A stretch of DNA of 64,000 nt. Origin: Escherichia coli (GTDB taxonomy: Bacteria; Pseudomonadota; Gammaproteobacteria; Enterobacterales; Enterobacteriaceae). Every line of letters begins with the position of its first letter. Positions within the stretch are counted from its first letter, which is position 1. Made by a program: the position numbers and the translations under genes. The notes under the pieces are model-generated. The model had not been told where the DNA came from, searched no databases, and was given only the letters and a program-made list of their open reading frames with translations. Of this stretch, positions 62,506 to 63,328 are shown piece by piece. The stretch lies in assembly GCF_050320075.1 (NCBI RefSeq), contig NZ_CP190018.1; one strand, given 5' to 3'.

Positions 62506-63218
62506 GCACAGAAAACCCCCAGCTAGGCTGGGGGTTCCGGAAAGCTTTCAGCTTTGAGCCAGTTATTCAAACCCCTTTTGATTTGTTAAAACACCTTGCG
62601 GTCTGGCAACTGCAAGTGTCAAACAAGAAATCAAAAGGGGGTCCCAATGGGGGACGAAAAGAGCTTAGCGCACACCCGCTGGAACTGTAAATATCACATA
62701 GTTTTTGCGCCGAAATACCGAAGACTGGCGTTTTACGGAGAGAAGCGTAGGGCGATAGGCAGTATTTTGAGAAAGCTGTGTGAGTGGAAAAGCGTACGGA
62801 TTCTGGAAGCAGAGTGCCGCGCAGATCATATCCATATGCTTGTGGAAATCCCACCCAAAATGAGCGTATCCGGCTTTATGGGATATCTGAAAGGGAAAAG
62901 CAGTCTGATGCTTTACGAGCAGTTTGGGGATTTGAAATTCAAATACAGAAACAGGGAGTTCTGGTGCCGAGGGTACTATGTCGATACGGTGGGTAAGAAC
63001 ACGGCGAAGATACAGGACTACATAAAGCACCAGCTTGAAGAGGATAAAATGGGGGAGCAGTTATCGATTCCATATCCGGGCAGCCCGTTTACGGGCCGTA
63101 AGTAACGAAGTTGAATGCAAATGTCAGATCGTATGCGCCTGTTAGGGCGCGGCTGGTAACAGAGCCTTACAGGCGCATTTGAAAAACCTCCGGCTATGCC
63201 GGAGGATATTTATTGCCT
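62506..63218 (+). mobile_element. IS200-like (IS200/IS605 family) insertion element; ends approximate
   Basis: Single Y1 transposase gene flanked by subterminal hairpins CCCCCAGC-TAG-GCTGGGGG (62516-62534) and CCTCCGGC-TAT-GCCGGAGG (63187-63205); second stem-loop 62571-62642 sequesters tnpA RBS. Confidence 0.7.
62647..63105 (+). CDS. tnpA: IS200 transposase TnpA (HUH Y1 transposase)
   Basis: 152-aa MGDEKSLAHTRWNCKYHIVFAPKYRRLAFYGEKRRAIGSILRKLCEWKSVRILEAECRADHIHMLVEIPP... with HuH motif HIHML and catalytic Tyr region. Confidence 0.9.
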   Translation: MGDEKSLAHTRWNCKYHIVFAPKYRRLAFYGEKRRAIGSILRKLCEWKSVRILEAECRADHIHMLVEIPPKMSVSGFMGYLKGKSSLMLYEQFGDLKFKYRNREFWCRGYYVDTVGKNTAKIQDYIKHQLEEDKMGEQLSIPYPGSPFTGRK

Positions 63219-63328
63219 GTCATTCTGATTAATTTTCGAATTGTCGTTTTTGTGATCGTTATCTCGACATTTAAAAACAAATAATTTCATTATATTTTGA
63301 AATCGAAAACAAACGACAGGATATGAAA

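Follow-up and report, generated by a model that had tools for sequence, protein, structure and literature searches.

The insertion sequences closest to the one described here are IS200C and IS200 of Escherichia coli and Salmonella. These elements are about 707-711 bp long, encode a single gene (tnpA), and lack both inverted terminal repeats and target-site duplications. They also share a terminator hairpin at the left end (LE), an SD-sequestering 5'UTR, and an STnc490/art200 region. The left-end hairpin of IS200 (nt 12-34) is a bidirectional terminator that blocks read-in transcription, and STnc490/art200 is an RNA of 90 nt, antisense to the 5'UTR plus the initial three codons (PMC4513863). 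In Yersinia pestis and Y. pseudotuberculosis, the related IS1541 likewise has the habit of lying after a hairpin and a T-run. It has also been described between pheL and pheA, after the attenuator terminator (PMC3082878).

Two further groups of elements provide useful points of comparison. IS608 and ISDra2 encode Y1 HUH transposases, carry subterminal hairpins on one strand, and insert 3' of a short target without duplicating it. Their features include a guide 5' of each hairpin, with which the IS608 cleavage sites pair (PMC3333891), and a bias towards the lagging-strand template. Their targets are TTAC and TTGAT respectively, and a neighbouring hairpin is not known to be needed. The REP/BIME-targeting insertion sequences and the RAYT/TnpA-REP systems use extragenic palindromes as landmarks.

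The window, i.e. the whole 64,000-nt stretch of E. coli DNA analysed here (contig NZ_CP190018.1), ends in the yegT(-)/fbaB(+)/gatY(+) region. As summarized in Table 1, it contains a complete 711-bp IS200-group element of the IS200/IS605 family in the fbaB-gatY gap, in the same orientation as both genes. The locus as a whole is very probably best explained as an intact, likely mobile isoform of IS200C that has inserted just 3' of the T-run of the fbaB terminator. Due to this one extra insertion sequence, 938 nt separate the fbaB stop codon from the gatY start codon, compared to 307 nt in K-12. Both the element and the locus are already known and annotated. An identical 961-nt locus is present in eight complete E. 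coli genomes, where RefSeq labels the gene "tnpA: IS200/IS605 family transposase", a generic name that does not specify IS200C.

Table 1. Features of the fbaB-gatY region (positions are those of the window)
Feature	Position	Strand	Basis
fbaB, class I fructose-bisphosphate aldolase	61338..62390	+	Pfam DeoC 1.5e-72; identical locus in RefSeq
Single REP-type palindrome, fbaB 3' region	62421..62459	+	Sub-threshold Rfam naRNA4/REP match; K-12 alignment
fbaB intrinsic terminator, 10-bp stem and T7	62474..62503	+	Terminator scan; folding; empty sites
IS200-group insertion sequence	62504..63214	+	Absent from empty site; identical copies elsewhere
GAAAA 5' of LE hairpin, proposed guide for T-rich target	62511..62515	+	Analogy with IS608
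LE subterminal hairpin, 10-bp perfect stem	62514..62536	+	Inverted-repeat search; folding; Rfam STnc490; PMC4513863
5'-region segment between LE hairpin and tnpA	62572..62640	+	Inverted-repeat search; folding; Rfam STnc490; PMC4513863
tnpA, 152-aa Y1/HUH transposase	62647..63105	+	ORF; profile searches; alignment
Interior right-end palindrome, 14-nt arms	63133..63178	+	Inverted-repeat search; folding
RE hairpin (63187-63205) and 9-nt tail ATATTTATT closing the element	63187..63214	+	Repeats; terminator scan; folding
Native fbaB-gatY spacer, intact	63215..63328	+	Alignments with K-12, CFT073 and strain 1190
Predicted gat promoter	63251..63293	+	Hexamer scan; CRP-like box read from sequence
gatY, tagatose-bisphosphate aldolase, runs off window	63329..64000	+	Pfam F_bP_aldolase 3.3e-83; annotation

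Two comparisons set the ends of the element: one with the site as it stands unoccupied in strain 1190 and K-12, the other with eight full-length copies from unrelated loci of other strains, all of which have the same ends and length as the window copy. Strain 1190 is free of the element, and its flanks are 99.8% identical to those of the window over 410 nt. With a slash marking each junction, the window reads GTTTTTTT/GTGCACAGAAAACCCCC at the left and CCGGAGGATATTTATT/GCCTGTCATTC at the right. The empty site reads GGGAGGCCGTTTTTTT/GCCTGTCATTC in strain 1190, and the junction is the same in K-12. There is no target duplication, given that the empty site GTTTTTTT/GCCTG corresponds to GTTTTTTT/IS/GCCTG when occupied. 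The ends carry an ambiguity of -2/+1 nt that arises from T/G bases common to both sides. A three-way MAFFT alignment with K-12 is unreliable at the junction due to extra REPs in that strain; the placement was decided by the sequence strings and strain 1190.

Most of the initial annotation is borne out by these comparisons. It had described an IS200-like element between the fbaB terminator and gatY (upheld by the empty sites and profile matches) that encodes a 152-aa HUH transposase (upheld by the Pfam and NCBIfam profiles and the aligned catalytic residues). It had also reported subterminal hairpins in the absence of inverted terminal repeats or target duplication, in agreement with folding, the repeat search, and the empty site, and had put the right end about 110 bp upstream of the gatY ATG, where 114 nt were measured. 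The span it assigned, 62506-63328, is too long: the true end is at 63214, and 63328 is the last base before gatY, so that 114 bp of native DNA had been included. The alignment with IS-free fbaB-gatY regions that it had proposed defined the exact ends and shows that the whole 114-nt spacer is retained. The possibility that the hairpin-containing flanks are native intergenic DNA was rejected, as both hairpins are missing from the empty sites.

The anatomy of the element is that of the IS200 group: about 0.7 kb in length, with tnpA only, an LE terminator hairpin, and an SD-sequestering 5'UTR/art200 region. Just one open reading frame has the right size and, in contrast to IS608 and ISDra2, there is no tnpB. 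The hairpins of the left and right (RE) ends are direct rather than inverted copies of each other, forming a 23-nt repeat that is 78% identical and includes their A-rich 5' sides. A repeat search of the element found no terminal inverted repeat linking its two termini. Folded as DNA, both hairpins are much more stable than shuffled sequences, with z-scores between -4.5 and -6. The RE hairpin with its ATATTTATT tail scores as terminator-like on both strands. The sequence GAAAA precedes the LE hairpin in all IS200 subgroups seen and recurs 5' of the RE hairpin (63181-63186).

The 5' region matches the full Rfam model STnc490 (IS200 5'UTR) at 62514-62637 on the plus strand, at 143.9 bits (gathering score 56). 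This match lies on the tnpA-sense strand and includes the LE terminator hairpin. It marks the IS200 5' region rather than the sRNA strand, since the sRNA itself is antisense (PMC4513863). Weak Rfam matches to Phe_leader and naRNA4 near 62421-62503 were rejected as a leader or sRNA gene, as they reflect just the terminator and the REP. Elsewhere in the window, three RNA families exceed their Rfam gathering scores: the OrzO-P antitoxin RNA (31334-31409, minus strand, 101 bits), the Peptidase-S11 RNA motif (10872-10952, plus strand, 73 bits), and a TPP riboswitch (54471-54567, plus strand, 72 bits).

The transposase is full-length. TnpA matches Pfam Y1_Tnp (E = 7.9e-37, 126.5 bits, cut-off 23) and NCBIfam transpos_IS200 (E = 2.9e-42, 143.9 bits, cut-off 55). 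Its catalytic core aligns over the full length with the solved structures of TnpA from IS608, ISDra2, and Sulfolobus. In this alignment, H61-I-H63, Y125, and Q129 stand opposite H64/H66, Y127, and Q131 of IS608, corresponding to the HUH motif, the catalytic tyrosine, and the third metal ligand. Ellis et al. used Y125F as their catalytically dead IS200 mutant (PMC4513863). Compared to the IS200C transposase, 147 of 152 residues are identical, and the elements differ by allelic changes only (about 29 of 711 nt, i.e. about 96% identity, and 5 aa). IS1541 has an identical 25-nt LE hairpin and the same RE hairpin with ATATTTATT, but differs in its first 9 nt (GTGCCCAGA versus GTGCACAGA), its host, and its much higher copy number. 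TnpA-REP is a distant relative; the NCBIfam REP_Tyr_transpos profile scores 28.6 bits, under its cut-off of 80. The window element is a self-contained insertion sequence and not a REPtron and, unlike the REP-targeting systems, it lies after a terminator rather than in the REP.

The fbaB terminator is unchanged in the empty sites of strain 1190 and K-12, and the left end of the element abuts its last T. Its stem (62474-62497) folds as DNA with -9.6 kcal/mol (z = -5.1). The DNA upstream varies between strains. K-12 has extra REP/BIME copies between the fbaB stop codon and the terminator; only one REP stands there in the window, CFT073, and strain 1190. In strains EC-107, HCP6S3_I1, and HCP4S3_I4, the left flank has another arrangement, with about 160 of 328 aligned positions different.

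The position of the element appears to follow a strong general preference of IS200-type elements for the 3' edge of intrinsic terminators. To collect left flanks, species-representative genomes were searched for the exact 25-nt LE hairpin, AAACCCCCAGCTAGGCTGGGGGTTC, with at least 120 loci listed. The matches listed include IS1541 of Y. pestis, Vibrio ruber, Brenneria, Edwardsiella, Pluralibacter, and several metagenome-assembled genomes (MAGs); representatives of E. coli and Salmonella are not among them, and RefSeq supplied the E. coli sites. The matches listed and the E. coli copies yield 127 distinct left flanks, about half of them from one Y. pestis genome. The flanks share the consensus TTTNTT, with T at positions -1, -2, -4, -5, and -6 in 114, 125, 107, 122, and 102 of the 127 respectively (among the matches listed). 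The right flanks are unrelated to each other. A hairpin with a minimum free energy (MFE) of -10 kcal/mol or lower precedes 95% of the 127 flanks among the matches listed; for control TTTNTT sites taken from 650 kb of these sequences, the share is 21% in noncoding and 9% in coding DNA. The measure used was the MFE of a 36-nt stretch that stops four bases short of the flank's end. It replaced a perfect-stem detector that undercounted terminators (62%) due to stem mismatches or loops of more than 8 nt, the fbaB terminator included.

The same pattern is evident within E. coli. All eight annotated copies follow the terminator of a co-oriented gene (yfeY, araE, ydcH, lom, htpX, and ydgJ), 30-80 nt past its stop codon. 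The exact LE hairpin is also present in MAGs assigned to Bacillota, Mailhella/Desulfovibrio, Oxalobacter, Saccharibacteria, Elusimicrobiaceae, and Peptococcaceae, where each copy has its own leader of 9-10 nt before the hairpin. Either one IS200 lineage has spread horizontally over a very wide range, or the bins are contaminated. For annotators, the point is that IS200-type elements lie almost exclusively right behind terminator hairpins, with matching orientation. As a result, their presence between convergent or tandem genes is expected and usually harmless. No novelty is claimed for this rule. Enrichment of terminators upstream of IS200/IS605 elements is reported in a 2025-26 preprint, where it is read as expression control (bioRxiv 10.1101/2025.07.22.666184). 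This is the only explicit statement on IS200 target choice in the literature searched, outside which lie the older IS200/IS1541 papers and He et al. 2015.

A mechanism for this preference can be proposed from the known biochemistry of the family. The element would have arrived through the single-strand "peel and paste" route of IS200/IS605 elements, and the target of an IS200-type element would almost always be a T-tract after a terminator hairpin. By analogy with IS608, the pairing partners of the GAAAA motifs would be the T-rich target on the one hand and the right end with its T-rich TTTATT on the other. Judging from GC skew, which is positive on the plus strand in seven of eight bins, the top strand of the element probably corresponds to the lagging-strand template, as expected for the family. 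The T-rich target of IS200-type elements (TTTNTT) differs from those of IS608 and ISDra2, and it nearly always follows a strong hairpin.

The IS608 model does not predict the additional link to a hairpin. Behind this link may lie recognition of the structure, its accessibility, or a selective filter that keeps harmless sites. It is a tentative and rather unlikely proposal that IS200 transposases select intrinsic terminators as structured single-strand targets for which the hairpin is required, in departure from the IS608 model. If so, IS200 could land at any terminator carried by the lagging-strand template, and hot spots of the fbaB-gatY kind would be accounted for. Exact mimicry of the right end by the terminator was rejected, with 6-8 nt from stem to cut in the targets versus 9 nt in the right end of the element. 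It is likewise possible, if doubtful, that the association arises purely from selection after insertion into T-tracts, without any structural recognition of the hairpin. Co-oriented insertions next to terminators are the least harmful, the IS608 paradigm requires only a 4-nt target (PMC3333891), and a fifth of noncoding TTTNTT sites already have a hairpin. Against this, the gap between observed and control sites (among the matches listed) is large and the orientation is always the same. In addition, selection for positions after gene terminators is inapplicable to some Y. pestis copies, which follow the RE hairpin and ATATTTATT of another copy. Three such tandem arrangements of IS1541 were observed in strain NCTC5923 (L074, L091, and L121), in which the left end starts right after the RE hairpin and ATATTTATT(T) of another copy; the right end of IS1541 is therefore itself a target. 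The preference of IS200-type elements for the T-tract behind a terminator hairpin probably makes the fbaB terminator a recurrent hot spot. It is very improbable that the insertions at fbaB-gatY instead descend from a single ancient event through vertical inheritance and spread by recombination, despite the identical or nearly identical position and orientation in all carriers. The divergence of element and flanks is discordant in both directions, three alleles of the element are involved, and junction T counts differ. Furthermore, carriers are few, and the site is cleanly empty in strains with closely related flanks, strain 1190 among them.

IS200 occupies the fbaB-gatY site in 19 of 5426 complete E. 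coli genomes, always in one orientation. Between the window and strain ETEC4068, the flanks differ at 1 of 250 positions on each side and the element at 29 of 711. Between CFT073 and ETEC4068, the element differs at 1 of 711 positions and the flanks at 17 of 252 (left) and 10 of 251 (right). Strain HCP6S3_I1 carries a third allele. The number of T residues at the junctions also varies (T6/IS/T, T7/IS, T7/IS/T, and T7/IS/TTT in the window at 63214/63215 and at loci L003, L006, and L009), either because the cut fell at different positions in T-runs of unequal length or through later slippage. The discordant divergence, the third allele, and the junction differences indicate that at least four or five independent IS200 insertions have occurred into the same few bases in E. 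coli lineages. Repeated occupancy of such a site across lineages is by itself no sign of shared ancestry, nor of selection on gat or a neighbouring operon.

The initial annotation had also placed the insertion inside the region of the gat promoter and operator and suggested that it displaces promoter elements. This part is not supported by the sequence. The insertion point is the first base past the T7 run of the fbaB terminator, at -114/-115 from the gatY ATG, and gatY is still joined to all 114 nt that precede it, as far as the terminator, in IS-free strains. The first 25 nt or so of this spacer (63215-63239) vary freely among strains; from about 63240 it is invariant or nearly so. The only sigma-70-like site in the spacer is TCGACA-18-CATTAT, with a predicted -35 element at 63264-63269 and -10 element at 63288-63293. 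A CRP-like TGTGA-N6-TCTCG box, read from sequence at 63251-63266, would have its centre at about -41.5 relative to the transcription start that this -10 element predicts. These predicted elements begin at least 37 nt downstream of the end of the element, with the insertion at about -86 relative to the predicted gat transcription start. The insertion thus lies neither within the predicted promoter and operator nor between them and gatY. A promoter scan of the junction found no hybrid promoter directed toward gatY from the end of the element and its flank. TTGCCT at the junction was rejected as a new promoter element, given that it is equally present in empty sites.

During evolution of K-12 in the mouse gut, gat-negative insertions were recovered at -16 and -72 from gatY (Barroso-Batista et al., PMC3945185, Table S2), the latter of which falls inside the CRP-like box. 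That insertions in the gatY regulatory region were selected in this setting, that the fbaB-gatY site was used again in several lineages, and that the DNA upstream of about -86 is displaced by 711 bp would all fit an insertion that perturbs gat regulation, by displacing the promoter or operator or by insulating gatY, and that was perhaps selected for doing so. We consider this improbable. The selected K-12 insertions lie in the leader or the CRP-like box, whereas the window insertion is at -114/-115, outside the invariant block, and the first bases past it are free to vary. Recurrence is explained by the general rule, which holds equally at the yfeY, araE, ydcH, htpX, ydgJ, and lom terminators. 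The gatYZABCD genes and the gene for the DeoR-family regulator are intact in an identical genome. Rather, gatY should remain insulated and under its own promoter: the fbaB terminator is still in place, the LE hairpin is a terminator that blocks read-in transcription (a point that the initial annotation had made and that is published, PMC4513863), and the RE hairpin is terminator-like. With terminator-like hairpins at both ends and a position upstream of the promoter, the element is most likely a passenger that leaves gat expression unaffected. A modest effect is conceivable, and an unrecognised distal operator or UP-like contact could have been lost with the DNA moved 711 bp away. The locus need not be flagged as a gat regulatory mutant, as gat regulation is most likely intact.

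Several observations bear on whether the element is active. Other strains have 711-bp copies, 100% identical to that of the window, downstream of yfeY and of araE, and 13 places match the element in an identical genome; these indicate that the lineage was recently active. Each of the eight genomes with the identical locus contains 9-15 copies. Overall, matches occur at 10,254 places in 2,641 genomes, and full-length 100% matches with the same ends lie at other loci. The window element is probably still mobile. A decayed, immobile relic is hardly credible: while IS200 is notoriously inactive in the laboratory (PMC4513863), the reading frame is full-length with all catalytic residues kept, both ends are intact, and the identical copies occupy other loci in other strains, in addition to the 9-15 copies per genome.

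Some other copies differ from the common arrangement. For example, E. coli TK3046 (locus L138, 401-1111) carries an IS200 relative of 93% identity in which the LE hairpin deviates from the 19-nt core searched, tnpA is annotated as shorter (start at 595), and no annotated genes lie around. This may be a diverged or truncated variant. In strains Ec-FL1-1X and 181.1, the same IS200C insertion lies after the htpX terminator with yebQ as the right flank in one and ymgL/ycgX in the other (L135/L136), which suggests a rearrangement with its breakpoint at the right end of the element. In E. coli CFSAN061763 (locus L130, 1111-1125), the start codon of yfeX lies only 13 nt beyond the right end of an identical IS200 copy, with nothing but the ribosome-binding site in between. 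This copy would be a better candidate for an effect on expression than the one upstream of gatY.
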